Of a stretch of 32,000 nt of DNA, positions 5,401-31,127 are shown piece after piece. Under the pieces are notes generated by a model that did not search any database, was not told the DNA's origin, and saw only the letters and a list, made by a program, of their open reading frames with translations. The number at the start of each line of letters is the position of its first letter. Position 1 is the first letter of the stretch. Origin of the DNA: Opitutia bacterium KCR 482 (lineage in GTDB: Bacteria > Verrucomicrobiota > Verrucomicrobiia > Opitutales > Intestinicryptomonadaceae); contig CP149973.1 of the NCBI GenBank assembly GCA_029269845.2, positions 690,001 to 722,000 on the forward strand, given 5' to 3'. The position numbers and the translations under genes are program-made.

Positions 5401-5401
5401 G

Positions 5402-13317: not shown

Positions 13318-13515
13318 TGCCCGTGCATTCAAATTCAGCCGCAAAACGGCGCAAAGATGGGGCGCGAAAGCGTCGGCGGAGCGCAAAAATCGGTTGACAA
13401 TTCATGCGGCGGGGAAACAATATTGGAATCCTTGAACAAGAAAGCCGCGGCGACACGGCACAGCGCCCCACCCCGCGAACACAATCCTGGCGCGCAAAAC
13501 GCGAAAGGCGCGTTA

Positions 13516-14127: not shown

Positions 14128-14267
14128 ACGGCGAGCATGGTTCTTTCGCCCTGTGGGCCGATGAGGCGGCCGGCATACTGGCGACAATATGCCAAAAATC
14201 CACAGCGCAAACGCGCAAGCGAAGCCGACGAAGAATCTTCCACGGCGCGAATCGGCGGCATGCGGGC

Positions 14268-14300
14268 AAAAAAAAATCGGCGGAGCTTCGCGCTCCGCCG
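14268..14300 (-). terminator. intrinsic terminator
   Basis: Minus strand: CGGCGGAGC-GCGAA-GCTCCGCCG followed by ATTTTTTTTT. Lies 13 nt after the TAG at 14313-14315, not after the TAA at 14406-14408. Confidence 0.8.
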
Positions 14301-14312
14301 AAATGCGACCGG

Positions 14313-14405
14313 CTATTTTCTCCTGCGGCAAACCGCCAATCCGACGGCGATTGCCCCGAAGATTGCCGCCCATTCGGCGGGTTCGGGAATCGCCGTGGCG
14401 AAGTA
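14313..14405 (-). pseudogene. orphaned PEP-CTERM sorting-signal segment, in frame with the upstream CDS but behind a TAA stop
   Basis: Direct translation of the minus strand after the TAA (14406-14408) gives YFATAIPEPAEWAAIFGAIAVGLAVCRRRK, then TAG (14313-14315). PEP motif plus hydrophobic helix plus RRRK is the canonical PEP-CTERM architecture. Confidence 0.75.
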
Positions 14406-15347
14406 TTAGTTTTTGCCGTCTATCTCGGTTTTTCCGAATTTGAGCCTGTCGTCGCCCATTTTGTTGCCGTCGGAATCGATAAACGAAATCATCTGCGACT
14501 TTGACGCATGGGTTATCGTGATTGTACCGTCGGCAAAACCGTCGGACGTTACTATATTTTCGAGAAAATACACCGTGCCGTCGATATTTCCGTTAACTAG
14601 CGTTATGAAGCCTTCCTTTACCGTGTCAGGCAAGTAGCCGGTTGCGCCGTTTACGAACAGGGACGCGCCGTCCGTGATGGATAGGTTGAAGACGCCCTTG
14701 ATATTGGAGCGGATGTCGAGGTCAATCGTCTGGTTGGCGGACATGTTCAGGTTGAATTGCCCGCGGGCGTCGTTGACAAAAAGGCGCACCAATTTTGTGT
14801 AGGAAGAGCTTGAAACGGAAATGGCGTTTGCCTTGTTCAAGTTTAAAGTCACAACTCCGAATTGCCCCGCAATTGCATCGGAAACAATTGTTCCGAGATA
14901 CCCGCTATCGACATTTACCGTAAGATTTCCGGTGAAATTTGCCGTTTCCCCATAACTCGCCGAAAAACCGTTTTTCAAAGTCATGCCCGCCGTTGCGCCG
15001 TTTTGGAAGTTTATTACGGAAGTCCCTTTTGTGCCGAGCGCGTAATCGCCGCTTGCCACCTGTCCCGCCCCGCTAATGACAAGATTCTTGCTGTCCGTCG
15101 GAGTAAAGTTGAGGGTGATGTTTTCGAGAACCAAAGGGCCGTCGCTCGGATTCGTGGTTATACTGTCCACCGAACCGGTGTTTACGCCGTCCGTGCCTGT
15201 AAGGTAATAGCCTGTTATATACTGTTTGGGATTGGTATTGTACTTCCCGAACTGGCCTGCGGTTTCGGTAAAACGAAAGTCGTCCGCAAAAAGCGAAGCG
15301 ACCGATAACGCCGAAAGCGTTGCGAATATTAGTTTTTTCGTATTCAT
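14406..15347 (-). CDS. secreted repeat-rich (beta-helix-like) protein, apparent PEP-CTERM protein truncated before its anchor
   Basis: Signal peptide MNTKKLIFATLSALSVASLFA. AAGGAG lies 6 nt upstream of the ATG at 15347; the ORF-track start at 15353 sits directly against the SD. G/N/T/S-rich degenerate repeats. Ends ...EIDGKN-TAA. Confidence 0.8.
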   Translation of the reverse strand: MNTKKLIFATLSALSVASLFADDFRFTETAGQFGKYNTNPKQYITGYYLTGTDGVNTGSVDSITTNPSDGPLVLENITLNFTPTDSKNLVISGAGQVASGDYALGTKGTSVINFQNGATAGMTLKNGFSASYGETANFTGNLTVNVDSGYLGTIVSDAIAGQFGVVTLNLNKANAISVSSSSYTKLVRLFVNDARGQFNLNMSANQTIDLDIRSNIKGVFNLSITDGASLFVNGATGYLPDTVKEGFITLVNGNIDGTVYFLENIVTSDGFADGTITITHASKSQMISFIDSDGNKMGDDRLKFGKTEIDGKN

Positions 15348-15540
15348 GTGCATCTCCTTTTTTCAGAATGATAAATTTATAACAAGCGACAGTATAGTTG
15401 TCAACGAAAATCGCCAACATTTTTTAACATTATACAAAAATTTAAAAAACGAAATAAATCGAAATCGAATCGGTGCGCCAATTTGCGGCTTGCCGTCCGC
15501 ATCGGGCGGGCGCGGCGGAAAATATTTGGATATTTCGAGC

Positions 15541-15577: not shown

Positions 15578-16813
15578 ATGGAACGGTATTTGTCTTCAAT
15601 TTTTGTTGCGTTTTTTATGCTATCCCTGCCTGTCTCTGCTTCAAACGCGTATTTTGCGGGTTCGTGCGACGGAGACGCTCTCGGCTACAAAATCGGCGAG
15701 AAAATGAAGTTCTCGCTCCGAATATTGGACGACAGGGGAAATGCCGTAAAAGGCCAAAAATTCAAATGGGTGCGGCGCGGCGACGACGGAATCACCGAAT
15801 CCGGCACGGCGGTATCAGGCAAAGAACCCGTGGTAATAGAAACGTCAATCGGGGTTGCGGGATTTGTCAGAATCACGGCCACGCCCGTGGACAACAGCGG
15901 CAAAAGGGCGAAGAATTGCGACGCCTTCGACGGCGGCGCGTGCGCGGGGTTCGGCGAAATCCGGCAAACCACGCCAGAGCCCCGCGATTTCGACGGATTC
16001 TGGCGGCGTCAGCTTTCGTACCTCGACAAAGTTCCGCCGAAGTGCAAAAAAGAACCCGTATTTCTCGTCCCCGGATTCAAAACGTACATATTGACAATCG
16101 ATTGCGTCGGCAAGCCCGCCAAGGCGTACCTTACGATTCCCGAAGGGGCAAAGGAAAAGTCGCTCCCTCTTTCCGTATTTTTCAGGGGATACGGAATCGG
16201 AAGAATTTACCCAAAATTTGACCGTTCCTGCATTTCGCTTTCTGTCGCCCGGCACAGCTACGATTTGGGACGCGACGACGACTATTACAAATCCCAATCT
16301 GTTCTTTTAAAAAACTTCGGTATGAAGGCGTCCGAAAACAAAAACCCCGAAAATTCCTATTTCAGGAACATGCTCTTGCGCGACCATCGGGCAATCGAAG
16401 TCGCAAAAAAACTTCCCGAATGGGACGGCAAAAACATCAAGGTTTCGGGCGGAAGCATGGGGGCGTTCCGTTCGATATTCGCCGCAATGCTCGACAAAGA
16501 CATCACGCTTTGCGATGTGTTCATTCCATGGCTTTCGAATTTGAACGGCGAAGCGGAGGGGAAAATGAAGTCTATTTGCATGCCCGAATATGTCCCCGAA
16601 CTTCTTTACTACGACATATCGAACGCAATCAAGCGCGTGGAATGCCCCGTAAAAATCTCGGCAAGACTTGGCGACTACGAATGTCCGCCCTCGGGGATTG
16701 CGATACTTTACCACAACACAAAGGGGCGCGTCGAGCTGAATTTTAGCCAAAACGGAACGCACGGATACACTTCGCCGTGGAAAGACAATCCCACTTATTC
16801 GAGGAGCAAATAG
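15578..16813 (+). CDS. secreted acetyl xylan esterase / cephalosporin-C deacetylase family (CE7, AXE1) with ~110-aa N-terminal extra domain
   Basis: Signal peptide. RDFDGFW (compare KDFSEFW of B. subtilis Cah). YFRNMLLRDHRAIEVAKKL…IKVSGGSMGA (GxSxG nucleophile). YYDISNAIKRVECPVKISARLGDYECPP (Asp). GTHGY (His). Confidence 0.85.
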   Translation: MERYLSSIFVAFFMLSLPVSASNAYFAGSCDGDALGYKIGEKMKFSLRILDDRGNAVKGQKFKWVRRGDDGITESGTAVSGKEPVVIETSIGVAGFVRITATPVDNSGKRAKNCDAFDGGACAGFGEIRQTTPEPRDFDGFWRRQLSYLDKVPPKCKKEPVFLVPGFKTYILTIDCVGKPAKAYLTIPEGAKEKSLPLSVFFRGYGIGRIYPKFDRSCISLSVARHSYDLGRDDDYYKSQSVLLKNFGMKASENKNPENSYFRNMLLRDHRAIEVAKKLPEWDGKNIKVSGGSMGAFRSIFAAMLDKDITLCDVFIPWLSNLNGEAEGKMKSICMPEYVPELLYYDISNAIKRVECPVKISARLGDYECPPSGIAILYHNTKGRVELNFSQNGTHGYTSPWKDNPTYSRSK

Positions 16814-17092: not shown

Positions 17093-18265
17093 CTATTTCT
17101 GGAAGTATCCGCCGACCGCTTCGCCAGCGGGGCGAATGTCGGTAAGGGTGCCCTCGTAGTGGCGCAGGTTGCGGCACTCGTAGGGGTGCTTTGCGATTTC
17201 CTCTTCGTTGATGTCCAAGCCGAGACCGGGTTTGTCGGGAATGAACATTTCGCTGTTTTCGAAACGCACAACTTCGGTCGTGATGTCCTTGCGGTACGGA
17301 ATGTCCGTCGCCATCGTTTCGAGCAGGTAGAAATTGGGCATGCAGGCCGCCAGCTGGAGTGTCGCCGCGTTCGCGACGGGGCCGCTCGGATTGTGCGGGC
17401 AAACCGCGATGTGGTGCGCTTCCGCCATTGCCGCAATCTTGCGGACTTCCGAAATGCCGCCCGCGTGGGAGACGTCGGGCTGCCAGAAGTCGGCGCATTC
17501 CATGCGGAGGAAGTCGAGGTATTCCCAGCGGCTGTAAAGTCTTTCGCCGCCCGAAACGGGGGTGTCGATTTTGCTGCGAACCCACGCGAGACCCTTTTTG
17601 TCGTCCGGCGGAATCGGCTCTTCGAACCAGAGAATGTCGAATTCTTTGAGGGCGTTGCCGATGCGGACAGCCGTCGGAATGTTGAAGCGTCCGTGCCCTT
17701 CGATGATGAGGTGCACTTGGTTGCCGACGGCGTCCTTAACCGCCGCGATGCAGTCGAGGGCTTCGTGGAGTTCCTTCGGGGCGATGTGCATGTATTCCTT
17801 GCCGAATGGGTCCCACTTCAAGCCGCTGAAACCGTTTTTGACGGCGATTTTCGCCATGGTCGCAAATTCTTCGGGCTTCTTTGCGCCCGCGAACCACGCG
17901 TTTGCGTAGCACTTGATGGAGTCGCGAACCTTGCCGCCCAGCAGCTGGTAGACGGGAACGCCCAGAGCCTTGCCCTTGATGTCCCACAACGCCATTTCGA
18001 CGCCAGCGAGCGCGCTCATGAGCACCACGCCGCCGCGCCAATAGGCGTCGCGGTAGACCCTGTGCCAAAATTCCTCGATGTTGTTCGGATCCCTGCCGAC
18101 GAGGTAGCGTTCGAGTTCCTTGATTGCCTGCACAACGGTCGGCTCTCTGTATTCGAGAGTCGCCTCGCCGACGCCGGTGATGCCTTCGTCGGTAAGAACC
18201 TTCACGAAAACCCAGTTCGTGCGGTATGCGTGGCAGATGAATGTTTTTATTCCTGTGACCTTCAT
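17093..18265 (-). CDS. enolase-superfamily sugar-acid dehydratase (mandelate racemase/muconate lactonizing family, galactonate-dehydratase-like)
   Basis: MKVTGIKTF…VFVKVLTDEGITGVGEATL…ALAGVEMALWDIKGKALGVPVYQLLGG parallels DgoD/ManD-type N-terminal domains. Barrel-domain acidic ligands are present (…EGHGRF…, FEEPIPPDD, GGERLYS, DVSHAGGI). Substrate not assignable. Confidence 0.88.
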   Translation of the reverse strand: MKVTGIKTFICHAYRTNWVFVKVLTDEGITGVGEATLEYREPTVVQAIKELERYLVGRDPNNIEEFWHRVYRDAYWRGGVVLMSALAGVEMALWDIKGKALGVPVYQLLGGKVRDSIKCYANAWFAGAKKPEEFATMAKIAVKNGFSGLKWDPFGKEYMHIAPKELHEALDCIAAVKDAVGNQVHLIIEGHGRFNIPTAVRIGNALKEFDILWFEEPIPPDDKKGLAWVRSKIDTPVSGGERLYSRWEYLDFLRMECADFWQPDVSHAGGISEVRKIAAMAEAHHIAVCPHNPSGPVANAATLQLAACMPNFYLLETMATDIPYRKDITTEVVRFENSEMFIPDKPGLGLDINEEEIAKHPYECRNLRHYEGTLTDIRPAGEAVGGYFQK

Positions 18266-18290
18266 TGTGTGTGTTATTTAGAATTGAAAT

Positions 18291-19016
18291 TTAGAAAACG
18301 CGCCCCTTGACCGACGGCTCTTCGGTCTCGACGCCGAGCTTTTTGACCGCCGCCATGAACGGGCGCGGGTCTTCCGTGTTGCGGGCAAACAGCCCGTAGT
18401 GCATGGGAATTGCGAACTTGGGCCTCAGCTCTTCGACGACTTTCACGGCGTCCTCCCACGGCATGTTGCCGAGCTTGCCGTTTATGCAAATGCATACGAT
18501 GTCGGGCGCGCCGCAGACTTTCTTGACGTCCGCCGACAGCGTGGGCTGGTAGAGGGAGTCGCCGCTGATGTAGAGCTTTTTGCCCGCGATTTCGAAAACG
18601 TAGCCGACCGCGAGGGGGTCGGAGTGGTATGCGGGAACGGCGGTGATTTTAAAGGTGTCGTCCTCGAAAACGTCGCCGATGTCGAGCTTGGTGAAGTTCG
18701 ACTTGTTGTAGCCGTCCTTTTCGAAATGGTTGAGCGTGCTCGTGGGGCCCGCGAACTTGCAGTCGGGGCAGACGCCGATTATTTCGCGCACCGATTCGGG
18801 GTCGTAGTGGTCGGCGTGGTCGTGCGTAAAGCAGACCAAGTCGGGGCGAAGTTCCTCGTAGGGGACGGGGTTGGGCATCATGCGGTTCATCTGCACGTCT
18901 TTGCGCGAAACTTCGTAAAGCCTGTTCGACATGTAGGGGTCTACAACAATGCGTTTTCCGTCGGCTTCGAGAAGGAAGCCCGCCTGACACAGCCAAGTGA
19001 TTTTAAGATTTCTCAT
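18291..19016 (-). CDS. MBL-fold metallo-hydrolase (UlaG-like), possible lactonase
   Basis: HDHADH metal motif, N-terminal KITWLCQAGFLLEADGKRIVVDPY, 241 aa. Its start overlaps the upstream stop (ATGA at 19013-19016). Confidence 0.85.
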   Translation of the reverse strand: MRNLKITWLCQAGFLLEADGKRIVVDPYMSNRLYEVSRKDVQMNRMMPNPVPYEELRPDLVCFTHDHADHYDPESVREIIGVCPDCKFAGPTSTLNHFEKDGYNKSNFTKLDIGDVFEDDTFKITAVPAYHSDPLAVGYVFEIAGKKLYISGDSLYQPTLSADVKKVCGAPDIVCICINGKLGNMPWEDAVKVVEELRPKFAIPMHYGLFARNTEDPRPFMAAVKKLGVETEEPSVKGRVF

Positions 19017-20203
19017 AATTCAAATTCCTCTATTTTCAGTCTGCCCGCGGAGTTGAAATATTCAAGTTTAATCTTTCCGACCGACTGCGGAATTTCCGCG
19101 GAAATTCTCGCGCCGCGTTCGGGAGAAACCTCGACAGGCTCGCAAAGCGCGTTGCCGAGTTCGTCGAAAACGCCGATTTTCCCAGCCGCGAACGCGCCCG
19201 CCGACGCGGTCGCAAACGCCGCGCCTCCGCGCCTTTCAACGGAAAGTTTTTCAGTCAGCACGCCAAGCCCGAACAGCGATTTCACCGTTGCGCCGCGGGG
19301 AACCGCGCACGCGCGGAGCTTGTAGGAAAAACCGAAGCTTCCGCCCGCGCCGATTTTCGTAAGCGGCGAAAGCAGCTCTATTTCCATGTAGGGCGGATTC
19401 CCGACGGGGTCGTCAGCCGCCGTCCGAAGCACCCCGCGCGAGAAAATCGAGCCTCTGCCCGAAGTCCAAACCTGCACGTTTGTGCCCTGCGGGTAGCGCG
19501 CCGATTGCGGGAAGTCGCACGACGCCACGAACGCCGTTCCGTTTGCGGTATCGGTGCACGCAACCCAGCCCGCATTTGTGTTCGCGCCTATTTTGCCCAT
19601 TATGTATTTGTATGAAACTTCGCAGTTTCCGCATTCGTCGATTCCGAACTGCGGGTTGTTCACAACGCCGTGCAACACACGGAATCCGTCGGGCGACGGG
19701 AATGTTATCGACGTATTCTCGTCGGCGCGAACCTGGACGACCGGCCAAATCGACCACTCGCCGCCCCCGCCCGAAACGTCCGTAAGCGACGCGTCGACAT
19801 TCACCCCCGACTGTCCGTCGAGCAGCGATATTGTGCGGTCTATGCGCAGGCCCGTTTTGGGATCGTCGGGGCTGCGCGTCGAAATTTTCTCCGAATCCGC
19901 CGCCAGAAGCGAAAAATATCCGCCGTCGAGCACGGGATCGGGCGGGCCCGCCCATTGCCCTTTGCCGTCCCAGCCCTGCGGAGCGACCCAAACCTTCTCG
20001 CCGCCGAAGTTCCGCCAAACGCCGTCCCACGCGGGAGTCGGCTGATCGTTTTCGACGCCCGCAAGCGCGGGATTTTCGAAAAGCAGATTCCGTCCGCAGA
20101 GCGAAAACTCCGCAATGCGTCCGCCGAGACGCGGGGCGACGACGACCTTCAACGCCCCGCGCGACAATTCGACGGTTTCGGTGCTATGCCTCGACATTGG
20201 CAT
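19013..20203 (-). CDS. DUF4380 / aldose-epimerase-like domain protein (function unknown)
   Basis: The N-terminal pattern …VVVAPRLGGRIAEFSL.GRNLL… NFGGEKVWVAPQ resembles DUF4380 / galactose-mutarotase-like folds as I recall them. No signal peptide. The start (20203 or 20197) lies inside the MFS gene's 3' end. Confidence 0.6.
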   Translation of the reverse strand: MPMSRHSTETVELSRGALKVVVAPRLGGRIAEFSLCGRNLLFENPALAGVENDQPTPAWDGVWRNFGGEKVWVAPQGWDGKGQWAGPPDPVLDGGYFSLLAADSEKISTRSPDDPKTGLRIDRTISLLDGQSGVNVDASLTDVSGGGGEWSIWPVVQVRADENTSITFPSPDGFRVLHGVVNNPQFGIDECGNCEVSYKYIMGKIGANTNAGWVACTDTANGTAFVASCDFPQSARYPQGTNVQVWTSGRGSIFSRGVLRTAADDPVGNPPYMEIELLSPLTKIGAGGSFGFSYKLRACAVPRGATVKSLFGLGVLTEKLSVERRGGAAFATASAGAFAAGKIGVFDELGNALCEPVEVSPERGARISAEIPQSVGKIKLEYFNSAGRLKIEEFEL

Positions 20204-21455
20204 GGGCGACTTCGTAGTCGCGCTTATAGAAGAATTTGTAGCCTACAAACAGCAGGAAGCTTCCGAAGACCCAAACCGCCGCAAGAAGCGAAATGCCCAG
20301 CGACAGCCCCAGCACGGGCTTGAGCATGCCCAAGACCAGCGGCGAAAGCGAGCCTACGCCGAAGCCCAAAAAGAGCATTACGCCCGCCGCCGAAGCGTGG
20401 AACTTCGGGGGAATGACGTCGTAGAGCACGGGGTATGTGTTTGCGTCGAAGAAAGCGCGCGCGAAGCCGAAGCCCGCCAAGCCAAGATAGACCGTCCACA
20501 TTTCGGAAGAGTAGCCCATCATCACGATGAACGGCGCGGCGGCGAGAAGCCCGCAGCTTTGCATCAAAATTCTGTACGCGGGCTTGAAGTGCGCAAGCTT
20601 GTCGGAAATTCTGCCCGCAAGGAGAATGCCAACGAACGCGGCAATGTGCGTGTAGAACATCGAGTTGAAGCCCGCGCGGGCCAAGTCCATACCGAACTTT
20701 TCGTGTAGGAATGTTGGCGTCCAAGTAAGGTAGCCCTGCAAAACGAAAATCAGGCAAGCGAACCCGATTGTGAGAATGAGGGCGGTCGGCGTCTTGAAAA
20801 GAATCGCCATGGAGTCGAGAAATTTGACTTCGTCCTTTTTCTTCTCGGCGGGAGCGGGTTCGGGCTTTTCGGAAACCTTGTCGTGCAGACGCCACATTAC
20901 GAGCAGTCCGTGCAGAACGCCGACCGCACCGAAGATGTAGAACGCGCTCCGCCAGCCCCAACGCTCGCCAATCCAGCCGGCGAGAAGCCCGCTTACGATT
21001 ACGCCGAAATAGTACGATGTCTGGTGGATGCTCATCGCCGTGCCGCGCGTGTCTTCGTCGTGGTAGTCGGCGATTGTCGAGTAGTTGGCGGGCCCGAAAG
21101 TCGCCTCGCCCATGCCCGTTGCGATACTGCGGAAGAGAATGAAAAGCAGAAGCCCGTGGCACGCGCCCGAGGCGATTGTCGCGCCGCTCCAAAGAATAAT
21201 GCTGAACACAATAATCCGCTTGCGGCTGATTCTGTCGGCGACGAAGCCCGAAATCGGCACGAGCAGCGCGAAGACGAGGCTGAATAGCGTCGCGATAAGC
21301 CCCGCCTCGCCGTCGGTCAGTTTTAGGGTTTCTTTAATCGGCACGAGCAGCGTGTTGTAAATCTGCCTGTCCGCCTGATTGAGGAAGAACGCCACCCACA
21401 GCAGCGCGAGAACCTCCCATTTATACCATTTATGATGATTTTTACGAATTTCCAT
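20184..21455 (-). CDS. MFS transporter, anion:cation symporter (ACS; DgoT/ExuT/GudP-like sugar-acid) family
   Basis: Preferred start MEIRKNHHKWYKWEVLALLWVAFFLNQADRQ… (ATG at 21455). 12-TM layout with a central loop. The FLNQADRQ and GFVADRISRKR motifs are typical of ACS-type MFS. Confidence 0.85.
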   Translation of the reverse strand: MEIRKNHHKWYKWEVLALLWVAFFLNQADRQIYNTLLVPIKETLKLTDGEAGLIATLFSLVFALLVPISGFVADRISRKRIIVFSIILWSGATIASGACHGLLLFILFRSIATGMGEATFGPANYSTIADYHDEDTRGTAMSIHQTSYYFGVIVSGLLAGWIGERWGWRSAFYIFGAVGVLHGLLVMWRLHDKVSEKPEPAPAEKKKDEVKFLDSMAILFKTPTALILTIGFACLIFVLQGYLTWTPTFLHEKFGMDLARAGFNSMFYTHIAAFVGILLAGRISDKLAHFKPAYRILMQSCGLLAAAPFIVMMGYSSEMWTVYLGLAGFGFARAFFDANTYPVLYDVIPPKFHASAAGVMLFLGFGVGSLSPLVLGMLKPVLGLSLGISLLAAVWVFGSFLLFVGYKFFYKRDYEVAHANVEA

Positions 21456-21514
21456 ATATAGTGTGTTGCGATTTAAAATATTAACGCCTCCGCGCGGCGG
21501 CGGAAGCATCTAAG

Positions 21515-21617: not shown

Positions 21618-24600
21618 CTATCGCGGGCGTTCGACGATTTCGAAGAACAACCCGACGTGTTCGGACGTGTCCAGCTCAATCTTCATGACGCCGTTTTCGA
21701 TTTCGAAGGGGATTTTCTCCGCGCGCGCGCCGTTCATTTTCAGCCTGAAAAAGTCGAACTTTTTGGAGGCGTCGAGTTTCAGCTCGGCGGAAAGTTTCGC
21801 CGTCTGCACGAGAATCGGCGGCTTGCCCCACGCGTTGATTTTCCTGCGCGCGATCGACAAGCCCACCCCGCTCGTAACGGTGTCGGTCGCGAGCACAAGC
21901 ACCATGCGCGACGACCCGCGAATCGGTTTTCCGTCAATCGAGACCACCGCCACCGACGCGTCCGCCCCGCAGGACTTCACGTTGAAGTCGCCGAGGTTCG
22001 CGCCCTCGCCCGCGTTGAGCACCGCCGCCTGACTCTTCGGCGTGGAGACCGTAAGCCTGCGCTTTTTGACGTCCATGAGGATTTCGCCGGTGTCGCTCTG
22101 GTAGATTTCGTTGGCGGGGTCGGAGATGTTATCCGCGGGAAGGATTCCGCGCTTTTTGAAGTCGCCGACAATGTCGGCGGTTTTGAAGTCCGCGCCGATT
22201 GTCTTGCCGACCTCCGCAAAGTTCATGGCGACCTCGACCGCCGACGCCCCCACGGGCGACATCGCCATGTCGGGCGACTTTACCTCGACCGCCTTCGTCT
22301 CTTCGAGCTTGCGGCCGTCGGGGAAAGACAGCGCAAAGCCCGTCATCAGCGAAATCCTCGACTGCTGGTCGTTTACCGCGTACGCCACGTTCGGGCTTTT
22401 TTCGAAGAACTCCCTTCCGTAGACGACGTCTATTCTGTGCGGGGAACGCTTTACGTCGCCGCGCTTGAAGAGGAAGTTCGTGAGGAAGTCGTTGGCGCGG
22501 AACACGGGGTTTACGCCGATTCCGAAAAACGAGAGCCTTCGCGGGGCGAACGCTACGGGGCTGTCGAACGCAACGAGCGCGTTGTAGCCCTGCAAGGCGG
22601 AGTACGCGGGGAAGAGCACGCCCGCCTCGTGCGCGTATTTGTTGAAGTAGCAGTGCTGGTACTCCGTGACGGCGATGGGCATTCCAGAAACGCGCTTGAC
22701 GACCGTCCCGCGCCAGTATCCGCCCGCGTTGCCTATCGAGCTGTTCTGGTTCACGTCCGCGCCGAGCGAGTACGACGACGGGTGCGCGTGGTAGGTGTTT
22801 ACCGCCGTGTAGCTGCCGCCCTCGGAGCTAAGGTATGTCCAGAAGACGTTTTTTAGGCAGTTGTTCTGGTGCGTGGGAATTTTCATGCCGATTTCCCCGC
22901 GCACGACATTCTCGCAAAACGCCTGCATTTCCTCCATCGCGCCGATTAGGAACTGCGTGAAAACCGGATTCCCCGACCTGTTCGGATACGGCGAGACATC
23001 GACCTGTTCGAACTTGTCGAACGCGCCGTTGTATGTCCACGGCTTGCCGATTCCGTCGCAATATGCGAGAAATTCGGAAACGCTCTTGAAGCGTTTTGAG
23101 AGGTATTCCGCGAATTTCGCGTTGACGAGCTTTCTGCCTTCTTCGGTAATCGCGTTGTAGACTGCGATTCCGAGCTCAAACTCGTTCCAGTACTCGATTG
23201 CCGCAATCGACGGGTCGTCCTTCCACGCCTTGCCCGTGTAGGGGTTGACGTGTTCGAGCTGCATTTTGGCGAGCTTGCGCCACGCCTCGCGCACGGCGGG
23301 GTCGCCCAGCATCATCTTGACCTTCACGGTAAAGCGGTCGTTCCATGTGAACGACGGGTCGCCGGTGTCGTGGCTGCAAATGTAGAAGAACGAGTAAATG
23401 CCCTCGCGGCCGAGCGCGTGGAGGAAGTAGTCGTACAAATCGCGGTTGAGGGGCTTGAGCTTGTAGGGGGCTTCGAACTCGCCCTTGCCCTTCATCGCAA
23501 AACGCCAGCGGATTGCGTTGTAGCCCTGCTTTTTCAGCTCCGCAACGTACTTGTCGATTTCCTCGTGCGTATTGATGTTCCAGCCGAAGCCGCAAATCAG
23601 CTCGAAGAAGTTCGCGCTCTTGAAGCGGATTTCCTCGTCGGGTCTGTCCTCGAAAACGAAGCCGCCGTTTTTGCCGATTTTCACCCTGCCGTACTTCCCC
23701 GCGGGCGCGCCCCGCGCGACGGATTCCGACATGTCGAGAGCCGAGCCTTTCTCGATTGCAAAGGTGTCGATGTCGAGCGGCTTCCAAACGGCGGGGTCGA
23801 ATTTCAGGTTTTCGGTCGTGTTGACCTCGCGCGACGACACCGTCGCCGCGACGATTTCCCAGTGCGCGCTCCGCAGAAGCTCGAAGTTCACCGACGCGAT
23901 GTCGGCAAGTCCGTCGCCGCCGACGAGGTCGAAGCGGCTCATGTATAGCACGCCGGTTTTCGATTTTTTGTCGTTGACGAAAACGGGGAGCGCGTTGTCG
24001 AACACAGCGGGGTTTTCGGTAGCCCGCCAGATGTCGGTCTTGCAGGCGACGAGCAGCTTTTTGTCGCGCCCGTCGGCGAATTTTACGGTAATTCTGCCGA
24101 GGTTTCCGTTGGCGTCGCCGCCCGCCGTGTGCAGAACGTAGAGGTATTTTCCGCGCGGAAGCGCGCCCGAAAAGTCCACTTTCGCCGAATCGCCCTTGCG
24201 GGTGATGACAACCGCCGACGCCCCCTCGTTGCGGTCGGCGTTCAGAATTTTGAATTTCATGCCGCCGTAGACGCGCCCGAGTTTGGGGGCTTTAAGTTTT
24301 GAGAACGCGGGCAGAACACCGTCGCCCGCGCCCTCCTTGAAGTCGGAGTTCGCCGCTTTCGACAAATCGACGCAGAATGAGTCTTCCCAGCCGTCGCCGC
24401 AAGACACCCGCGCGGAAAATTCCGTGCGCACGCCCTTGACGAGCCTTATTTTGTGCGAAATGCGCTTCGAGCGCGTAGTCTCCGCGCACATTCCGCCACC
24501 GCTTTCGACGGGGTTCGGCACTATCGCCACCCTGCCCGTCGGCTTCCAGCCGCCAAGACCGTCCTTGAAGTCGAAGCCCGCCGCGCCTTTGATGTCTGTA

Positions 24601-24908
24601 AAATAGACCGCCAGCGGCTTTTTGCCCTCGCCCGCGCGGAGTTCCAGCACGGCGTCGCCGTCGGCTTCGGGCACAAGCGCGAATTTCATTTCGCGGAACT
24701 TGTTTGAGGACGCCTCGCGAGCGAAGACTTTTACGCCCGCTCCGCCCGACACTTTGCAGTTCGTGCCCTCTGCGTCGATTTTAACGGGGACTGCCGTGCG
24801 CAGCACGGCCTCCGCAGGAATTTTTTTCGCGGGGATTTTCGTCTGCGAAAAAAGCGCGGATACCGTTGCCAGTATCCACGCCGTTGAAATTGCAGCATAT
24901 CTTAACAT
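21618..24908 (-). CDS. secreted multidomain protein, putative clan GH-A (GH42/GH5-like) TIM-barrel glycoside hydrolase, paralog 3
   Basis: Signal peptide. Central region carries a GH-A-like strand motif series: GYNAIRWR, FFYICSHD, IEYWNEFE (Glu codon 23181-23183), NTYHAH, IAVTEYQ (Glu codon 22662-22664). The two Glu lie 173 aa apart. Flanked by beta-sandwich-like N- and C-terminal modules. Family not assigned. Confidence 0.6.
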   Translation of the reverse strand: MLRYAAISTAWILATVSALFSQTKIPAKKIPAEAVLRTAVPVKIDAEGTNCKVSGGAGVKVFAREASSNKFREMKFALVPEADGDAVLELRAGEGKKPLAVYFTDIKGAAGFDFKDGLGGWKPTGRVAIVPNPVESGGGMCAETTRSKRISHKIRLVKGVRTEFSARVSCGDGWEDSFCVDLSKAANSDFKEGAGDGVLPAFSKLKAPKLGRVYGGMKFKILNADRNEGASAVVITRKGDSAKVDFSGALPRGKYLYVLHTAGGDANGNLGRITVKFADGRDKKLLVACKTDIWRATENPAVFDNALPVFVNDKKSKTGVLYMSRFDLVGGDGLADIASVNFELLRSAHWEIVAATVSSREVNTTENLKFDPAVWKPLDIDTFAIEKGSALDMSESVARGAPAGKYGRVKIGKNGGFVFEDRPDEEIRFKSANFFELICGFGWNINTHEEIDKYVAELKKQGYNAIRWRFAMKGKGEFEAPYKLKPLNRDLYDYFLHALGREGIYSFFYICSHDTGDPSFTWNDRFTVKVKMMLGDPAVREAWRKLAKMQLEHVNPYTGKAWKDDPSIAAIEYWNEFELGIAVYNAITEEGRKLVNAKFAEYLSKRFKSVSEFLAYCDGIGKPWTYNGAFDKFEQVDVSPYPNRSGNPVFTQFLIGAMEEMQAFCENVVRGEIGMKIPTHQNNCLKNVFWTYLSSEGGSYTAVNTYHAHPSSYSLGADVNQNSSIGNAGGYWRGTVVKRVSGMPIAVTEYQHCYFNKYAHEAGVLFPAYSALQGYNALVAFDSPVAFAPRRLSFFGIGVNPVFRANDFLTNFLFKRGDVKRSPHRIDVVYGREFFEKSPNVAYAVNDQQSRISLMTGFALSFPDGRKLEETKAVEVKSPDMAMSPVGASAVEVAMNFAEVGKTIGADFKTADIVGDFKKRGILPADNISDPANEIYQSDTGEILMDVKKRRLTVSTPKSQAAVLNAGEGANLGDFNVKSCGADASVAVVSIDGKPIRGSSRMVLVLATDTVTSGVGLSIARRKINAWGKPPILVQTAKLSAELKLDASKKFDFFRLKMNGARAEKIPFEIENGVMKIELDTSEHVGLFFEIVERPR

Positions 24909-24911
24909 AAA

Positions 24912-27704
24912 CTATTCCGAAACGATTTCGAAGAACACCGCCGTGTGCTTTGCCGTGTCGAGTTCCAACTTCATCACGCCGTCGGCGGAGACTTCGCAGG
25001 GGATTTTTTCGACGCGTTCGCCGTTCATTTTCAGCGAATACACCGCGTACTTTTTGTTCGGCGCAAGCTTCAATTCGGCGGAAAGTTTGCCGGTTTCGAT
25101 AAGCACGGGCATGCCGCCCCAAGCCGTTACGAACAGCCTGTTTTTCGACACGCCGAAGCCCTTCATGACGGCGTCGGTGTTGTATGTGAGAACGAGCCTG
25201 CCCGATTCGGCAATCGGCTTGTCGTCAACCGCCGAGACCGCGATTGCCGCGTTCGCCGTGGACGATTTCACCGTGAGCCTGCCTAACTTTTCGTTTTTGA
25301 GCGTCGAGCGCATTACGATAGCCTCCGACTTCGGGCTTACGACTTTCATCATGTTCTCCTTCGAGCGCATTGTGATTTCGCCCGTGTCGCTCTGGTAGAC
25401 GCCGTTTGCGGGGTCGGAGATGTTGTCGGCGGGGAGTATTCCCTTTGCCTTCAATTCCTTTGCGAATTCGGCGATGTTGAATTTGCCGTCGGGCGAAATC
25501 GACATCGTGGCGGGCTTTACCGACACTTTTTTAAGCTCGTCGATTTTCCTCGCCGTCGGGAAGTTGAGGGCAAAGCCCGTCATGAGCGCGATTTTCGTGC
25601 GGTCGGCGGCGGCTGGCATTCCGATTGCCTGACTCTTTTCCATCGCCTCCTTGTCGAAGAGAATGTCTACGCGGTTCGGCGAAGTTTTGACGTCGCCGCG
25701 GTAGAAGAGGAAGAAGTTGATGAAGTCGTTTGCGCGGAATACTGGGTTTTCGGCGACGTTGAAGTAGCCCAGCTCTCCGCCGCGCGGGGCTACCGCCGCG
25801 TCGAATACCACGAGCCCGTCGTAGTCGTTTAGAGCCGAGTACGCGGGGAATGTCAGCGCCGCCTCGTGCTTGAAGCGGTTGAAGTGGCAGTGCTGGTATT
25901 CGGTGATTGTCATGGGCATTCCCGCAACTTTTCGGTTGATTGTGGAACGCCAGAAGTTGGTTTCGTCGGCGAATTCGCTGGTGTCGTTGACTATGCCGCC
26001 GATGAGGTAGGACGACGGGTGAACGAAGTATGTGTTGCACGCAATGTAGCTGCCTCCCTCCGCGCCGATGAACGACCAGTACAGACGCTTGTTGCAGTTG
26101 TTCTGGTGGGTGGGAACTTTCATGCCGATTTCCTTGCGGACGAAGTTTTCCCAAAACGCCTGCGTTTCCTCCATCGCCTTGATTACGAAGTGCGCGTACG
26201 CCTTTGAGCCGCGGTTGCCCCAGACGGAGAGGTCGGCGTCGGCGAAGGTTTTAAGAGGCTTTTTCTGTTTCCACGCGGGGTTGTCGGCGAGGAACTTTTC
26301 GACCGTTCCGTATTTTCCCTTCAAAAACTCCGCGAACTTCGAGGCTATCAACGCCTTGCCCTCGGCCGTGAGGTTGGGGTAGTTTTCCGCGCCGATTTCA
26401 AACTCGTTCCAGTATTCGAGCGTCGCCACTACGGGGTCGTCTTTGAGAGCCATGCCCGTGTAGGGGTTGACGTGTTCGAGCTGCATGCGGGCAAGCTTCT
26501 TCCAGTTGTCGCGCACTTTTTCGTCGCCGAGCATCATTTTGACTTTCAGCGTTCCGCGTTCGTCCCAGCGGAATTCGGGACTGCCGTCGTCGTTGCTGCA
26601 AAGGTAGTAGAAAATATAGACGCCCTCGCGTTTGAGCGCGTAGATATAGTAGTCGTACATATCCTGAATTTCGGGCTTGAGCCGGTAGGGGGCGTCGTAT
26701 TCCGCCGCTCCGCGCATTGCGGGACGCCAGCGCACGGCGTTGTAGCCCTGCTTTTTGAGGATTTTCACGTATTCGTCGATGTCCTCGTGCGTGCGCACAA
26801 GCTCGCCCGTCACGCGCGGAGCCGACGGGTCTACAACCTCGTTTTTCACGGGGAAGCGGTTTGCAAGGCGCAGGTTTGTGCCCTTGAATTTAATCGGCAC
26901 TCCCGGCTTCTTTTCGAACTCGAACTTGCCGCTCTTGCCGATTACCACCCTGCCGTCTATTCCGCACGGCGCGCCGAACATCATTTTGGAGACATCGAGA
27001 GCCGAGCCCTCCTTGATTGCGAGGTCGGCGGTGTCGAGGGGCTTCCAGACTTCGGGGTCGAAAACGTAGTTTTGGGTTGTCTGCACTTCCTCCGAGGAAA
27101 CCGCCACGCCCGCGATTTTCCAATCGCCCTTGCCAAAGCTTTTGAATCCGATTTTCGAAATCGGGGCGGGGTCTTTGCCGGGAACCGCCCCATAGTTTAC
27201 GATGAAGCGCGACAGGTACAAAACGCCCGTCTTGCTCTTTTCGTTTTCCACATAGACGGGAAGCGCGTTGTCGAGCACGTCGGCGGATTCGTCCGCGCCG
27301 CCGATGTCGCGGCCGCCCTTAACCCAAACGGTGCGCTTGCGGCCGTCGGCAAAAACAATCTCCATTTCGCCGCCGAAAACCTTGCCCTTGGGCTGGTTTT
27401 CGAACGCGTGGAGAAGGAAGACGTAGTTCGCGTTTCGGTTGACGTATTTGGAAACGTCCACTTCGGGCACGTTCTTTTCGTTGCTTGCCGAAATTACCCA
27501 GTTGCCGCCGTGCTTCGACGGATCGGCGACGATGAACCCCATTCCGCCAAGCTCCATGCCTCCCGACTTGAAGTTTTTGACCGACGCCATCTTTCCGTTG
27601 ACCGCCTCCGAGATGTCGGCAACCTGCGTATTTTCCCCGTCGCAACCCGCCGCAAAAAGCGCGAGAATCGACGCCGATAGTAGTAGTAGTTTTTTCATTC
27701 CCAT
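24912..27704 (-). CDS. secreted (possibly lipoprotein) putative clan GH-A glycoside hydrolase, paralog 2 (lacks first N-terminal module)
   Basis: MGMKKLLLLSASILALFAAGC leader. Motifs LEYWNEFE (Glu codon 26403-26405) and MTITEYQ (Glu codon 25899-25901), 168 aa apart. Collinear with paralogs 1 and 3, including the shared GILPADNISDPA…YQSDTGEI block. Confidence 0.6.
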   Translation of the reverse strand: MGMKKLLLLSASILALFAAGCDGENTQVADISEAVNGKMASVKNFKSGGMELGGMGFIVADPSKHGGNWVISASNEKNVPEVDVSKYVNRNANYVFLLHAFENQPKGKVFGGEMEIVFADGRKRTVWVKGGRDIGGADESADVLDNALPVYVENEKSKTGVLYLSRFIVNYGAVPGKDPAPISKIGFKSFGKGDWKIAGVAVSSEEVQTTQNYVFDPEVWKPLDTADLAIKEGSALDVSKMMFGAPCGIDGRVVIGKSGKFEFEKKPGVPIKFKGTNLRLANRFPVKNEVVDPSAPRVTGELVRTHEDIDEYVKILKKQGYNAVRWRPAMRGAAEYDAPYRLKPEIQDMYDYYIYALKREGVYIFYYLCSNDDGSPEFRWDERGTLKVKMMLGDEKVRDNWKKLARMQLEHVNPYTGMALKDDPVVATLEYWNEFEIGAENYPNLTAEGKALIASKFAEFLKGKYGTVEKFLADNPAWKQKKPLKTFADADLSVWGNRGSKAYAHFVIKAMEETQAFWENFVRKEIGMKVPTHQNNCNKRLYWSFIGAEGGSYIACNTYFVHPSSYLIGGIVNDTSEFADETNFWRSTINRKVAGMPMTITEYQHCHFNRFKHEAALTFPAYSALNDYDGLVVFDAAVAPRGGELGYFNVAENPVFRANDFINFFLFYRGDVKTSPNRVDILFDKEAMEKSQAIGMPAAADRTKIALMTGFALNFPTARKIDELKKVSVKPATMSISPDGKFNIAEFAKELKAKGILPADNISDPANGVYQSDTGEITMRSKENMMKVVSPKSEAIVMRSTLKNEKLGRLTVKSSTANAAIAVSAVDDKPIAESGRLVLTYNTDAVMKGFGVSKNRLFVTAWGGMPVLIETGKLSAELKLAPNKKYAVYSLKMNGERVEKIPCEVSADGVMKLELDTAKHTAVFFEIVSE

Positions 27705-27735
27705 ATATATTGTGGTTATTGTGTGTTGTTGAATA

Positions 27736-30700
27736 TTATTCGGCGACGATTTCGAAGAAGGGCGAGAACTCCTTGAGCTTCGACGTGTCGATTTCTATTT
27801 TCAGCATGCCGTCCGACTCTTCGAGCGGGATTTTTTCGAGGCGTTCGCCCGTGATTTTAAGCGCGTAAAGCGAGAATTTTTTGCCCGCGCCGAAAAGCGA
27901 AGCCACGTCGTCGAAGAATCCCAAGCTCGGCTTTTCGAGCGTAGCCGACACTTTGCCGACCTGCATGAGAATAGGCGTCGTGCCTTTCGAGATGAACGTC
28001 GTTTCGTCGCGCGAAACTTTGAAGTTCGTAGAGATGTTGTTGGTGTTGAAAATGAACACAATTCTCCCCGACTCCGCAAGCGGGTTGCCGTCAACCGACG
28101 ACGCCGCAACCGCCGCGGGAACCGAAACCGACTTCACCGTAAGCTCGCCCACCTTCTCGTTTTTCGTGGCGGGCTTGAGCGCGACAGCCTCGGTATTTGC
28201 GGTCGCAACTTTCACAAGCTCCTCTTTCACGCGCATCGTGATTTCGCCGGTGTCGCTCTGGAAGACGCCCTTTGCGGGGTCTGTCGCGTTGTCGGCGGGA
28301 AGTATGCCTGCCTCGCGCAGGCGTTTTGCGGCTTGGGAAATGTCGAACTTTTTGTCGCCCGCGCCAGTTCCCGCGACGTTCGACGCAGCCCACGACGCCG
28401 AAGAGCCAATCGGCTCGAACTGCAAGTCGGCGGGCTTCGTTTTGATTTTCGCGGCGGCGGGCGATTTGCGGGCGGTCGGGAACTCGATTCCGAAGCCCGT
28501 AAGCAGCGCGAGTTTCGACTGCTCCGTGTTCATGGCGTTGCCGACTTCGCGCGAGTTTTCAAGGTATTTGTCGTCGTAGACAATGTCCACGCGGCGGTCG
28601 GAAGTTTTGACGTCGCCCCTGAAAAACAGCACGGAGGTCAAAAATTCGTTTGCGCGGAACACGGGGCTGCCCGCCACTTCGAAAGGTCCGAGCGCGCCGC
28701 GCGATTTAAGAACCGCAACATCGTGGACTGTGAGGTTGTCGAAGCCCTGCAACGCCGAGTACGACGGGAACAGCACGCCGCCCTCGTGTTTGTAGGGATT
28801 CCAGTGGCAGTGCTGCCATTCCGAAAGCATCATGGGCCTTCCCGCCACGCGCTTCGCGGCGGCGGCTCTGAAATATTCGCCGAAGTCGGACACAGACGAC
28901 TCCGAGCCCACTACCGAGCCCTCCGACATGAACGCGCTGGGGTGTTTGTGGTAGACGTTGAGCGCGGTGTAATCGCCCGCCTCCGCGCTTAGCAGCGCAA
29001 ACGATGTTGCCCTCACGCAGTTGTGCTGGTGGAGCGGAACGTTGAAGCCCTCCTCGCCGCGCACGACGCCCTCGCAGAAGCGTTGGAGGTCGCGCCCGTT
29101 TTCGATTATGAACAGGGCGATGTCGCGCTGTGAAATGCCTTCGTCGGATATTTTCACGTCGTCGAAGCTTTTGAGGTTGCGGCGGGCTTTCCATTCGGGC
29201 TCGTTCCAGTTTTCGAAAGTCTTGTACTTGTTTTTGAGGAACTCCACGAACTTTGCGTTTACAAACTTCTTCACGCGCGGCGACGCGTTGCGAAGCCCGA
29301 CGGGGCCAAGCTCGATTTCGTTGAAATACTCGGTGGAGACAATGGAGGGGTCGTCCTTCCACTTTTTGCCTGTGTATTTGTTGACGAGGTTAAGCTCCCA
29401 CTTGACGAACTTGCGCCAGTCGGCGCGGGTTTTTTCGTCGCCGAAGAACATGAGAATTTTCACGTCGAACCTGTCGGCCCAATTGAAGTCGGGGTTGCCG
29501 AGGTCGTGGCTCGAAAGGTTGAAGTGCGAGTACACGCCCTCGCGCGCCATGGCGTAGAAGAAGTAGTCGTACATGTCCTTGTTGTACTCCCTGAGAGTGT
29601 ACGGCGCGGAGAATTCCTTGTTGCCGCGCATGGAAATGCGCCAGCGAACGAGGTTGTAGCCCTGCCTGCGCATCATTTTTGCAAGCTCGTCGATGTCGGC
29701 GTGCGTCTTGATTGTCGTGCCGAAGCCGTCGCCGGGACGCCAGTTCGTGCCCTGAAACTTCACGGGAACTCCCGCGCGGTTTTCAAATTCGAAACGCCCG
29801 TTTTCGGAGACTCTCATTTTGCCGAAGCTGCCCGCGGGCGCGCTTTCAACCTGCTTGGAGAGGTCGAGAGCCGTGCCCTCTTTCACCGCCAAGTCGGAGA
29901 TGTCCACGGGCTTCCACTGGCTCAAATCGTACTGTTTGGGAACGATTGTATCGAGGCTTTCGCTCGAAACCGTAATCGCGAAAACGTTGAGCTTTTCGCC
30001 GTCGATTCTTATGCTTTTGATTGCTCCGGCGTTTTCCTTAAACACGAATTTTGTGAAGTAAAGCACTCCGCCGTTCTTGCCCCCCCCGAAAACGGGAATG
30101 CACTTGGAGTTAAATTTTGTAGTGCCGGCGGAGTCGCCGAAATCCCTGTCTTTGCGAATCCAGAAATGCTCCGACCCGCCGTTTTCGAAAGAAACGAGCA
30201 TGCTTGCGCAGGCGTGGTCGGTATACTTCAAGTCGTTCGAGACCGCGCCCAAAACGTAGACGTATTTGCCGCGAATACCTTTGCCCGACAAATCGGCTTT
30301 CAGCGGCGTCGATACAGAAACAGCCGCCGCGCGGTTGACGCCCGACTTCGGGAAATCGTACTTCATTCCGCCAAGCTCTACAACTCCCTCGGGGAGGTTT
30401 TTATACGCCGAAATGCCGCCCTTCGAGCCGTCGGCCGGAATGTTTGCGCATTCGGAAATGTCGACCGTGTACGTGCCGTCCCACTTGGCGGGGACTTTCG
30501 CCTCTACCGACACCGACACCGGCACGCCTTTTTTCACACTGATTTTGGCGGGTATGCCGCGCGCGTATGTAGCCTCATGCCCGCTTTGCCCCGCAAGCTC
30601 GGCTTCGGGCTTGCCGTCGAATGCGAGGTTTCTGAACAGAGTGCGGTTTGAGAGCACCGCGCCGTTTTTGTCGCGCGCAAAATTGCTGCGCAGAAGAATG

Positions 30701-30969
30701 TTGAGCGTTGCGTCGGAATCGGGCACAACGGTGAAGCCCATTTTACTCCATTCGGAGTCCGACACTTTTTTTGTGGCGGTTATCGTTTTCGGGGCGTCGC
30801 TGCGCCAGTTTGCGTGGCCCGCGCCCGTGCCTTTTATCTTGGCGACGACCTTTACGTCGGCGTCCGACCACGAGAAGATTTCCGCAACGTGCGATTTTAC
30901 CGCGTCCGCCGCAAACAATGAAGCCGCCGCGAGTGTTGACAATAGTATTATAGGTGTTTTTCCAAACAT
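27736..30969 (-). CDS. secreted putative clan GH-A glycoside hydrolase, paralog 1
   Basis: Preferred start MFGKTPIILLSTLAAASLFAADA (ATG at 30969; the ORF-track start at 31023 adds 18 non-signal residues). Motifs TEYFNEIE (Glu codon 29317-29319) and MMLSEWQ (Glu codon 28819-28821), 166 aa apart. Confidence 0.6.
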   Translation of the reverse strand: MFGKTPIILLSTLAAASLFAADAVKSHVAEIFSWSDADVKVVAKIKGTGAGHANWRSDAPKTITATKKVSDSEWSKMGFTVVPDSDATLNILLRSNFARDKNGAVLSNRTLFRNLAFDGKPEAELAGQSGHEATYARGIPAKISVKKGVPVSVSVEAKVPAKWDGTYTVDISECANIPADGSKGGISAYKNLPEGVVELGGMKYDFPKSGVNRAAAVSVSTPLKADLSGKGIRGKYVYVLGAVSNDLKYTDHACASMLVSFENGGSEHFWIRKDRDFGDSAGTTKFNSKCIPVFGGGKNGGVLYFTKFVFKENAGAIKSIRIDGEKLNVFAITVSSESLDTIVPKQYDLSQWKPVDISDLAVKEGTALDLSKQVESAPAGSFGKMRVSENGRFEFENRAGVPVKFQGTNWRPGDGFGTTIKTHADIDELAKMMRRQGYNLVRWRISMRGNKEFSAPYTLREYNKDMYDYFFYAMAREGVYSHFNLSSHDLGNPDFNWADRFDVKILMFFGDEKTRADWRKFVKWELNLVNKYTGKKWKDDPSIVSTEYFNEIELGPVGLRNASPRVKKFVNAKFVEFLKNKYKTFENWNEPEWKARRNLKSFDDVKISDEGISQRDIALFIIENGRDLQRFCEGVVRGEEGFNVPLHQHNCVRATSFALLSAEAGDYTALNVYHKHPSAFMSEGSVVGSESSVSDFGEYFRAAAAKRVAGRPMMLSEWQHCHWNPYKHEGGVLFPSYSALQGFDNLTVHDVAVLKSRGALGPFEVAGSPVFRANEFLTSVLFFRGDVKTSDRRVDIVYDDKYLENSREVGNAMNTEQSKLALLTGFGIEFPTARKSPAAAKIKTKPADLQFEPIGSSASWAASNVAGTGAGDKKFDISQAAKRLREAGILPADNATDPAKGVFQSDTGEITMRVKEELVKVATANTEAVALKPATKNEKVGELTVKSVSVPAAVAASSVDGNPLAESGRIVFIFNTNNISTNFKVSRDETTFISKGTTPILMQVGKVSATLEKPSLGFFDDVASLFGAGKKFSLYALKITGERLEKIPLEESDGMLKIEIDTSKLKEFSPFFEIVAE

Positions 30970-31127
30970 AGTAATCCGTGTGTGTGTTAAAGGGTTTGAC
31001 GTTAACCGATTTCCGCCGCGCATGCAAACATTTTTTCCCGCGCTCCCCGCCGATTCTTTCTTTCCGTGAAAATTGTGTTGCGCGAAGCGATTTTGATGTT
31101 TTCATTGTCTTCCGATTTTTAAAATTT

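Follow-up and report, generated by a model that had tools for sequence, protein, structure and literature searches.

Three consecutive genes on one strand, coding for large and mutually related proteins, raise the question of what these proteins do and why three of them should be kept. The genes lie in a 32,000-nucleotide (nt) stretch of the genome of Opitutia bacterium KCR 482 (contig CP149973.1, positions 690,001 to 722,000 of the forward strand); this whole stretch is referred to below as the window, and its positions are counted from its first letter. An original prediction, made from the DNA letters, had described the genes, here called A, B, and C, as a triplicated set of secreted proteins resembling an unclassified glycosidase family of clan GH-A. 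Our analysis leads to a similar view, and we consider it likely that the triplet encodes exported, paralogous glycoside hydrolases (GH) of clan GH-A (the '4/7' clan) that belong to a large, unstudied family.

Three paralogs and their predicted catalytic barrel

All three genes were found on the minus strand. Paralog A occupies 21618-24908 (1096 amino acids [aa]) and paralog B 24912-27704 (930 aa), while paralog C corresponds to a longest open reading frame (ORF) at 27736-31023 (1095 aa) or, from an alternative start at Met19, to 27736-30969 (1077 aa). The Met19 start (30969) is the one chosen by gene callers on two near-identical metagenome contigs (L001 and L002). ORF positions, alignment, and BLASTP (E=0) agree with the prediction of three collinear minus-strand paralogs separated by gaps of 31 nt (B/C side) and 3 nt (A/B side), and the identities over ~1000 aa are 49% for A-B, 36 to 37% for A-C, and 40 to 43% for B-C. 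The sequence blocks proposed to be shared, KQGYNA(I/V)RWR, HVNPYTG, FRAN(D/E)F, GILPADN...QSDTGEI, and FFEIV, were all recovered in the A/B/C alignment.

Searches of Pfam-A and NCBIfam returned zero matches for A, B, and C even at E≤1, and an Rfam scan of the window gave no match. In a phmmer search against all PDB chains, residues 350-446 of B weakly matched the GH5 endo-mannanase 3pz9 (E=6e-4), with EYWNE of B falling on ELANE. A homolog search retrieved 146 relatives, every named one of which is a 'hypothetical protein'; a minority have precomputed partial Pfam matches to GH42 (PF02449) or GH5 (PF00150). A family profile built from a 103-sequence alignment, with identities down to ~21%, matched, in the PDB, the GH5 mannanases 6tn6, 3pz9, and 8gf3 at E~1e-16, as well as 1rh9, 1uuq, and 4qp0. 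The GH5 Pfam matches in homologs (20 to 31 bits, several of them, at 25 to 31 bits, above the gathering score of 23.5) cover the N-terminal half of the barrel only, while the GH42 matches (25 to 47 bits; gathering score, 21) cover model positions ~122-310, the acid/base-to-nucleophile segment, and include the nucleophile-equivalent Glu, which coincides with the C-terminal end of the match or precedes it by a few residues. Because the two sets of matches divide the barrel in this way, the family, as judged from these alignments, is intermediate in sequence between the mannan-active enzymes of GH5 and GH42.

An AlphaFold2 (AF2) model of full-length B, computed with the family alignment as input, had a predicted local distance difference test (pLDDT) score of 93.2 and a predicted template modeling (pTM) score of 0.92. 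It consists of four parts: an N-terminal β-sandwich (residues ~26-203; 27096-27629, minus strand), an eightfold strand/helix barrel (residues ~265-670; 25695-26912, minus strand), a small α/β region, and C-terminal β-sandwiches (residues ~770-930). The α/β region and the C-terminal sandwiches together (residues ~678-930; 24915-25673, minus strand) contain the GILPADN..DPA..QSDTGEI and FFEIV blocks. A separate AF2 model of the catalytic region (B 205-765) had a pLDDT of 91.9. The predicted (β/α)8 barrel was thus borne out by both models as eight alternating strand/helix units, its position following from DSSP assignments in these models, from Foldseek, and from the PDB profile match.

Foldseek searches of the PDB with full-length B had GH50 exo-agarases as their top matches (E, 1e-13 to 1e-11; 11 to 13% identity), followed by GH5 mannanases, GH42, and GH35. 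With the catalytic region as query, GH5 mannanases and mannosidases ranked first (8gf3, 4lyq, 1uuq, and 1rh9; E, 1e-9 to 1e-10; TM scores of 0.57 to 0.63 on the target), and the next ranks were held by GH42 (4uzs), GH164 (7oms and 6t5o), GH5_18, and GH35. All of these top matches are clan GH-A enzymes, at 10 to 15% identity, in line with the proposed clan membership. Since the barrel is present, the Glu pair lies at the GH-A catalytic positions, and no sign of an adhesin family appeared among the matches, the original prediction of a GH-A barrel was retained.

Strand 4 of B, as assigned by DSSP in the AF2 model, comprises residues 426-430 and is directly followed by N433-E434; strand 7 comprises residues 598-605 and contains E602. 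The predicted acid/base residue is therefore the Glu of an N-E pair after strand 4, aligned by HMMER on the ...ELANE... stretch of GH5 mannanases, whose Glu we take to be their acid/base, and the predicted nucleophile is the Glu of a T/S-E pair within strand 7. The codons for the candidate general acid/base (B E434, 26403-26405; A E576, 23181-23183; C E569, 29317-29319) and for the candidate nucleophile (B E602, 25899-25901; A E749, 22662-22664; C E735, 28819-28821), all on the minus strand and with C in long-ORF numbering, are exactly at the predicted coordinates. Recomputed Glu-Glu spacings are 173 aa in A, 168 aa in B, and 166 aa in C, and the GH42-like spacing pointed out earlier finds a counterpart in the partial GH42 Pfam matches of some homologs, which span exactly this segment.

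Both candidate catalytic Glu residues are invariant in the 103 homologs (E434 and E602 in 103/103), even at ~21% identity, and N433 is present in 102/103. Also invariant, in B numbering, are G320, G361, Y363, N413, T416, F506, Y559, and G895; R325, N433, and H562 occur in no fewer than 90% of the sequences, and P563 is near-invariant as well. An 'S/H-D' motif that had been proposed after strand 3 is the part of the prediction that fell away, being without conservation across the family.

It is very unlikely that A, B, and C are nonhydrolases with a GH-A scaffold, whether transglycosylases or catalytically inactive proteins that bind glycans or serve at the surface. Retaining GH-A scaffolds do include transglycosylases, such as the β-1,2-glucosyltransferase 7vkx among our fold matches, and the proteins carry large noncatalytic β domains; yet both Glu residues, the Asn before the acid/base, the Arg of strand 2, and the Tyr of strand 6 show little or no variation among the 103 divergent homologs. 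The inactive-protein variant is disfavored because such conservation is not expected for pseudo-enzymes.

The retaining machinery of clan GH-A is universal in the clan, and characterized GH-A families cleave equatorially (β-) linked glycosides. As hydrolases, A, B, and C would cleave such a glycoside by double displacement with retention of configuration, E434/E576/E569 (B/A/C) acting as general acid/base and E602/E749/E735 as nucleophile, and the flanking β domains would hold the glycan in position or bind it. We infer hydrolytic activity, a retaining mechanism, and β-anomeric specificity because of the clan GH-A homology together with the conservation and placement of the two Glu residues. 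The N-terminal β-sandwich of B may be carbohydrate binding, since a few homologs carry the CBM_4_9 domain (PF02018). A carries an extra N-terminal module of ~165 aa ahead of the β-sandwich, the barrel, and the C-terminal β domains; C likewise has an additional N-terminal module, and B is without one. Inspection by eye and by hydropathy revealed a hydrophobic segment at the N terminus of all three proteins, lipoprotein-like in B (...LFAAG-C21, with Cys21) and of Sec-type appearance in A and in C (from Met19). All three are thus predicted to be exported, B as a lipoprotein-like protein and A and C with Sec-type signals.

Several points weigh against this assignment. No family member has a demonstrated activity. 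A, B, and C fail the Pfam GH5 and GH42 models even at the permissive threshold given above, and the PDB profile match is limited to barrel strands 1-4. The placement of the Glu pair is a strand assignment in AF2 models, and the export prediction is one of hydropathy only. Two residues before the invariant strand-6 Tyr559, A, B, and C have Asn (B residue 557), where 71 of the 103 sequences have His; GH5 enzymes have their 'H-x-Y' motif here, and the Asn may be a specificity-related substitution. The family-wide genomic context, moreover, is heterogeneous and points to no substrate.

Family size and age of the triplet

The triplet belongs to a populous family. With B as the query, HMMER was run over 1.84 billion representatives of clusters formed at 50% identity; the matches numbered 3243 at E≤1e-3, 1904 at E≤1e-10, and 754 at E≤1e-30. 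The core shared by the family corresponds to B residues ~215-930, and the N termini are variable in length. A scan with a 19-sequence alignment, in which each species was represented by a single genome, confirmed at least 518 loci, with individual genomes holding several of them. Among the matches listed, the best was to Opitutia bacterium UBA4654 (92% identity), and the carriers were gut Opitutales, Victivallales/Lentisphaeria, Planctomycetaceae/Thermoguttaceae, and one Spirochaetes metagenome-assembled genome (MAG). At least six family loci were found in the human-gut MAG HGM23545, and Victivallis genomes proved rich in family members in the genome scan.

Separate tandem arrays of two to three members (loci L029, L034, L037, L038, L039, L063, and L066) occur in other Opitutales, Victivallaceae, Lentisphaeria, and Planctomycetaceae. 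As these arrays are independent and fall in several lineages, tandem multiplication is a recurrent habit of the family. Distant homologs adjoin genes typical of carbohydrate utilization, which are heterogeneous and code for GH78-like, GH29, GH141, GH92, GH5, GH10, GH28, GH127, GH43, and GH1 proteins and for LacI and AraC regulators. A Pfam scan of 84 neighbor ORFs from 21 loci revealed no consistent gene partner or substrate signal (AraC, 4; LacI, 3; FAD oxidoreductase, 3; GH127, 2; GH1, 2).

Two further architectures were also observed. A 1272-aa protein (P0346) is a family member fused to a sulfatase domain (PF00150+PF00884), and in another (P0224) the family core is embedded in a protein of 5383 aa. 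For some branches of the family, this hints at substrates that are sulfated glycans and at surface proteins of giant size.

Why three copies are kept can be approached through their relatives. The order C-B-A is kept in three other assemblies, so that four genomes, counting that of the window, carry the triplet. Identities to C, B, and A are 97, 92, and 96% in UBA4654; 66, 84, and 68% in the Verrucomicrobiota bin SI.O52; and 65, 75, and 61% in HGM23545. A fifth genome, the MAG SIG75, has a B-A pair only. In an all-against-all matrix, identity within classes was 49 to 96% for A, 59 to 93% for B, and 64 to 97% for C, compared with 33 to 50% between classes. These comparisons place the duplications before the divergence of the five genomes, with every copy kept. 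An old triplication of which all copies are kept in order argues for complementary, nonredundant roles of A, B, and C on one glycan, be it on different linkages, on different chain lengths, or in different cell locations. For the earlier suggestion that each paralog may be specific for another linkage, this retention of all three classes is the one line of support, and an indirect one.

The reach of the family gives the question wider interest. At least 750 clusters that have intact GH-A machinery and are covered by neither a Pfam nor an NCBIfam model amount to a sizeable blind spot in the profiling of carbohydrate-active enzymes (CAZymes) in gut and environmental samples. Many family copies are found in gut Verrucomicrobia (Opitutales), Lentisphaerae (Victivallales), and Planctomycetes; a single assigned activity would annotate thousands of proteins and could reveal glycans harvested by poorly cultured bacteria of the Planctomycetes-Verrucomicrobia-Chlamydiae (PVC) group. 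The ordered triplet kept across species also offers a ready set of three diverged enzymes for tests of subfunctionalization.

Neighboring genes and the downstream cassette

The terminator candidate that had been placed after the triplet was confirmed at the level of pattern. Two hairpins with U-tracts (~21609-21571 and ~21542-21515, minus strand) lie between A and the gene for a major facilitator superfamily (MFS) protein, and a 106-nt stretch 3' of A folds at -30.4 kcal/mol (z=-2.9 versus shuffles). Downstream of A is a cassette of four genes on the same, minus strand (17093-21509), which is possibly associated with the triplet. It encodes an MFS anion-sugar-type transporter closest to the D-galactonate transporter subfamily (20184-21509); a DUF4380 protein of 396 aa (19013-20203), whose gene lies between those of the transporter and of the following hydrolase; a metallo-β-lactamase (MBL)-fold hydrolase that is UPF0173/UlaG-lactonase-like (18291-19016); and an enolase-superfamily enzyme of galactonate-dehydratase type (17093-18265), which scored 353 bits against the NCBIfam galactonate-dehydratase cutoff of 311 bits. 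The DUF4380 protein was matched by nothing in NCBIfam and by nothing meaningful among the PDB sequences, and a literature search for DUF4380 returned no papers; a PDB sequence search with the MBL protein was likewise uninformative.

A functional link between the triplet and this acid-sugar-type cassette is possible. The enzymes would free a uronic or aldonic-type sugar, or an oligosaccharide containing one, which the MFS protein would import and the lactonase-like MBL protein and the dehydratase would process. β-Glucuronidase-like specificities do exist within clan GH-A. The cassette lies directly downstream on the same strand and follows the triplet in three of the four triplet-bearing genomes (those of the window, UBA4654, and HGM23545), and the dehydratase score and the affinity of the transporter fit the scheme. 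The B-A pair of SIG75 is preceded by a tripartite ATP-independent periplasmic (TRAP) DctM transporter and a lactonase-like β-propeller protein, and another MR_MLE enzyme is encoded two genes away from a homolog of 26% identity, which lies amid GH10, GH28, and Pel9A-like genes. We nevertheless regard such feeding of the cassette as quite unlikely. The two terminator-like hairpins intervene between A and the MFS gene; the SI.O52 triplet lacks the cassette and is followed instead by GH16, an antiporter, and GH43; no cassette was found at any of the other family loci fetched (~70), including the surroundings of the SIG75 pair; and no sugar dehydrogenase, kinase, or aldolase was seen in the cassette block.

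The dehydratase of the window (17093-18265) is 97% identical to that of HGM23545 (locus L006, 16751-17923). Its neighbors are less conserved between the two genomes, at 84% for the MFS protein, 76% for the MBL protein, 55% for the DUF4380 protein, and 61 to 75% for the three glycosidases, and because the dehydratase so far exceeds its operon neighbors, this pattern suggests either unusually strong constraint on it or a recent exchange of the single gene. Convergent to the cassette is a gene for an AXE1/CE7-like acetyl esterase (15578-16813, plus strand), conserved on contig L001, whose product could deacetylate the same glycan as that of the triplet.

Upstream of the triplet is a divergent phosphoglycerate mutase gene. 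Beyond the esterase, the interval 12527-15353 holds ORFs of 240 to 315 aa that have no Pfam or NCBIfam match (12527-13258 on the plus strand or 12539-13273 on the minus strand, 13315-14127 on the plus strand, and 14406-15353 on the minus strand), at least the last of which gene callers also predict on a near-identical contig. A further ORF at 13725-14504 (plus strand) had no match in a Pfam-only scan. A resistance-nodulation-division (RND) efflux pair, composed of an HlyD-type adaptor (7054-8196) and an AcrB-type pump (8193-11327), is followed by a TetR regulator (11644-12366). The region 1018-6685 encodes a DUF3034 protein, an α/β-hydrolase esterase, a PALP-family (cysteine-synthase-like) protein, and a Cys/Met-metabolism pyridoxal phosphate enzyme, and is apparently unrelated to the triplet.

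Comparison with known glycosidase families

The closest resemblance is to the β-mannan-active enzymes of GH5. The comparators were the endo-mannanases of Thermotoga petrophila (3pz9/6tn6), BlMan5_7 (8gf3), and tomato (1rh9), the exo-mannosidases CmMan5A (1uuq) and RmMan5B (4lyp), and GH5_18. These gave both the best profile match (E~1e-16) and the best fold match of the catalytic domain (TM, 0.57 to 0.63). Shared with these enzymes is a stretch '(H)VNxYTG..(Y/W)KDDP....E..NE' that runs into strand 4, and also shared are the hallmark residues, namely, the Arg of strand 2, the Asn-Glu of strand 4, the (His/Asn)-x-Tyr of strand 6, and the Glu of strand 7. In contrast, the sequence match ends after strand 4, PF00150 was unmatched by A, B, and C at E≤1, and the three proteins are two to three times larger, with conserved N- and C-terminal β domains. 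In most GH5 enzymes, the two Glu residues are ~100 to 130 aa apart, compared with 166 to 173 aa in A, B, and C. Homology to GH5 over the whole barrel thus has to be read from a profile match over strands 1-4 only and from a fold TM of ~0.6 at 10 to 14% identity.

A second resemblance is to the GH42 β-galactosidases (4uzs and 8ibt) and the GH42-like GH164 β-mannosidase Bs164 (6t5o and 7oms). Fold matches to these have E values of 1e-7 to 1e-8, the two Glu residues are similarly spaced, the barrel is likewise followed by an α/β domain and a β domain, and partial PF02449 matches in homologs fall on the acid/base-to-nucleophile half. Identity is 10 to 15%, however, PF02449 was unmatched by A, B, and C, and the GH42 trimerization (PF08532) and C-terminal (PF08533) domains were detected neither in A, B, and C nor in the homologs scanned. 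A, B, and C have an N-terminal β-sandwich, which is not known to be a feature of GH42. Bs164 was absent from the PDB sequence searches and was matched by Foldseek only (E~1e-7; 10% identity).

The GH50 β-agarases (4bq2, 5z6p, and 6xj9) headed the Foldseek ranking for the full-length model (E, 1e-13 to 1e-11); the probable reason is that GH50, too, combines an N-terminal β-sandwich with a GH-A barrel. Identity was 11 to 13%, the full-length TM only 0.25 to 0.36, and with the catalytic domain alone GH50 ranked below GH5 and GH42. Neither phmmer (E≤10) nor the family profile (E≤1) retrieved a GH50 chain from the PDB; the bacterium is a gut inhabitant, and no agar-related genes (GH117 or the anhydrogalactose pathway) were seen near the triplet. 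GH164, GH50, and GH35 were accordingly set aside as families of placement, their likeness being at the level of fold only.

GH148 enzymes have a CBM4 insertion within the barrel; no such insertion was seen in A, B, and C, and this family was rejected. The fold of GH165 is a five-bladed β-propeller (PMC8602953). As the AF2 models have a TIM barrel, GH165 was rejected too. A protein of Victivallis vadensis classed as 'GH5_dist' (ZP_06241352.1) was active on p-nitrophenyl (pNP)-β-D-mannopyranoside (Helbert et al. 2019; PMC6442616). It may be a member of the family of the triplet; a homolog search from a Victivallis member returned no named V. vadensis protein.

This protein illustrates a further explanation, namely, that the biochemistry is as proposed but the family is already in CAZy, as a very divergent GH5 ('GH5_dist') or a GH42-like group, and the triplet is an ordinary multicopy CAZyme. 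The strong profile match to GH5 mannanases speaks for it, as do the several homologs that exceed Pfam gathering scores (GH42, 25 to 47 versus 21 bits; GH5, 25 to 31 versus 23.5 bits), although by partial matches. We think it somewhat unlikely, since A, B, and C themselves have no Pfam or NCBIfam match, the GH5 and GH42 matches lie on complementary halves of the barrel, every solved GH-A structure matched is 10 to 15% identical, and the GH42 accessory domains are lacking. The description 'unclassified' thus holds with respect to Pfam, NCBIfam, and close solved structures, the Pfam model PF00150 standing in for the hidden Markov model of GH5 in CAZy.

Within that scope, the family is a candidate new or unassigned family of clan GH-A, set apart from known families as far as the comparisons by Pfam, NCBIfam, PDB, and fold go. 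A bolder version holds that this new family has a specificity outside GH5 and GH42, possibly for a β-glycan of diet or host that contains or yields acidic sugars, and that C-B-A is a three-enzyme depolymerization module coupled to the uptake and dehydration cassette of aldonate/uronate type; we consider this combination speculative and unlikely as a whole. The leading guesses for substrate, drawn from the nearest neighbors only, are of β-mannoside type and then of β-galactoside type, because the nearest neighbors in sequence and fold are mostly β-mannan-active, with β-galactosidases next. Seen beside these known systems, the mechanism proposed for the triplet is unsurprising: the catalytic machinery is the ordinary one of clan GH-A, and it is found here in a large, unannotated family with a domain architecture of its own.

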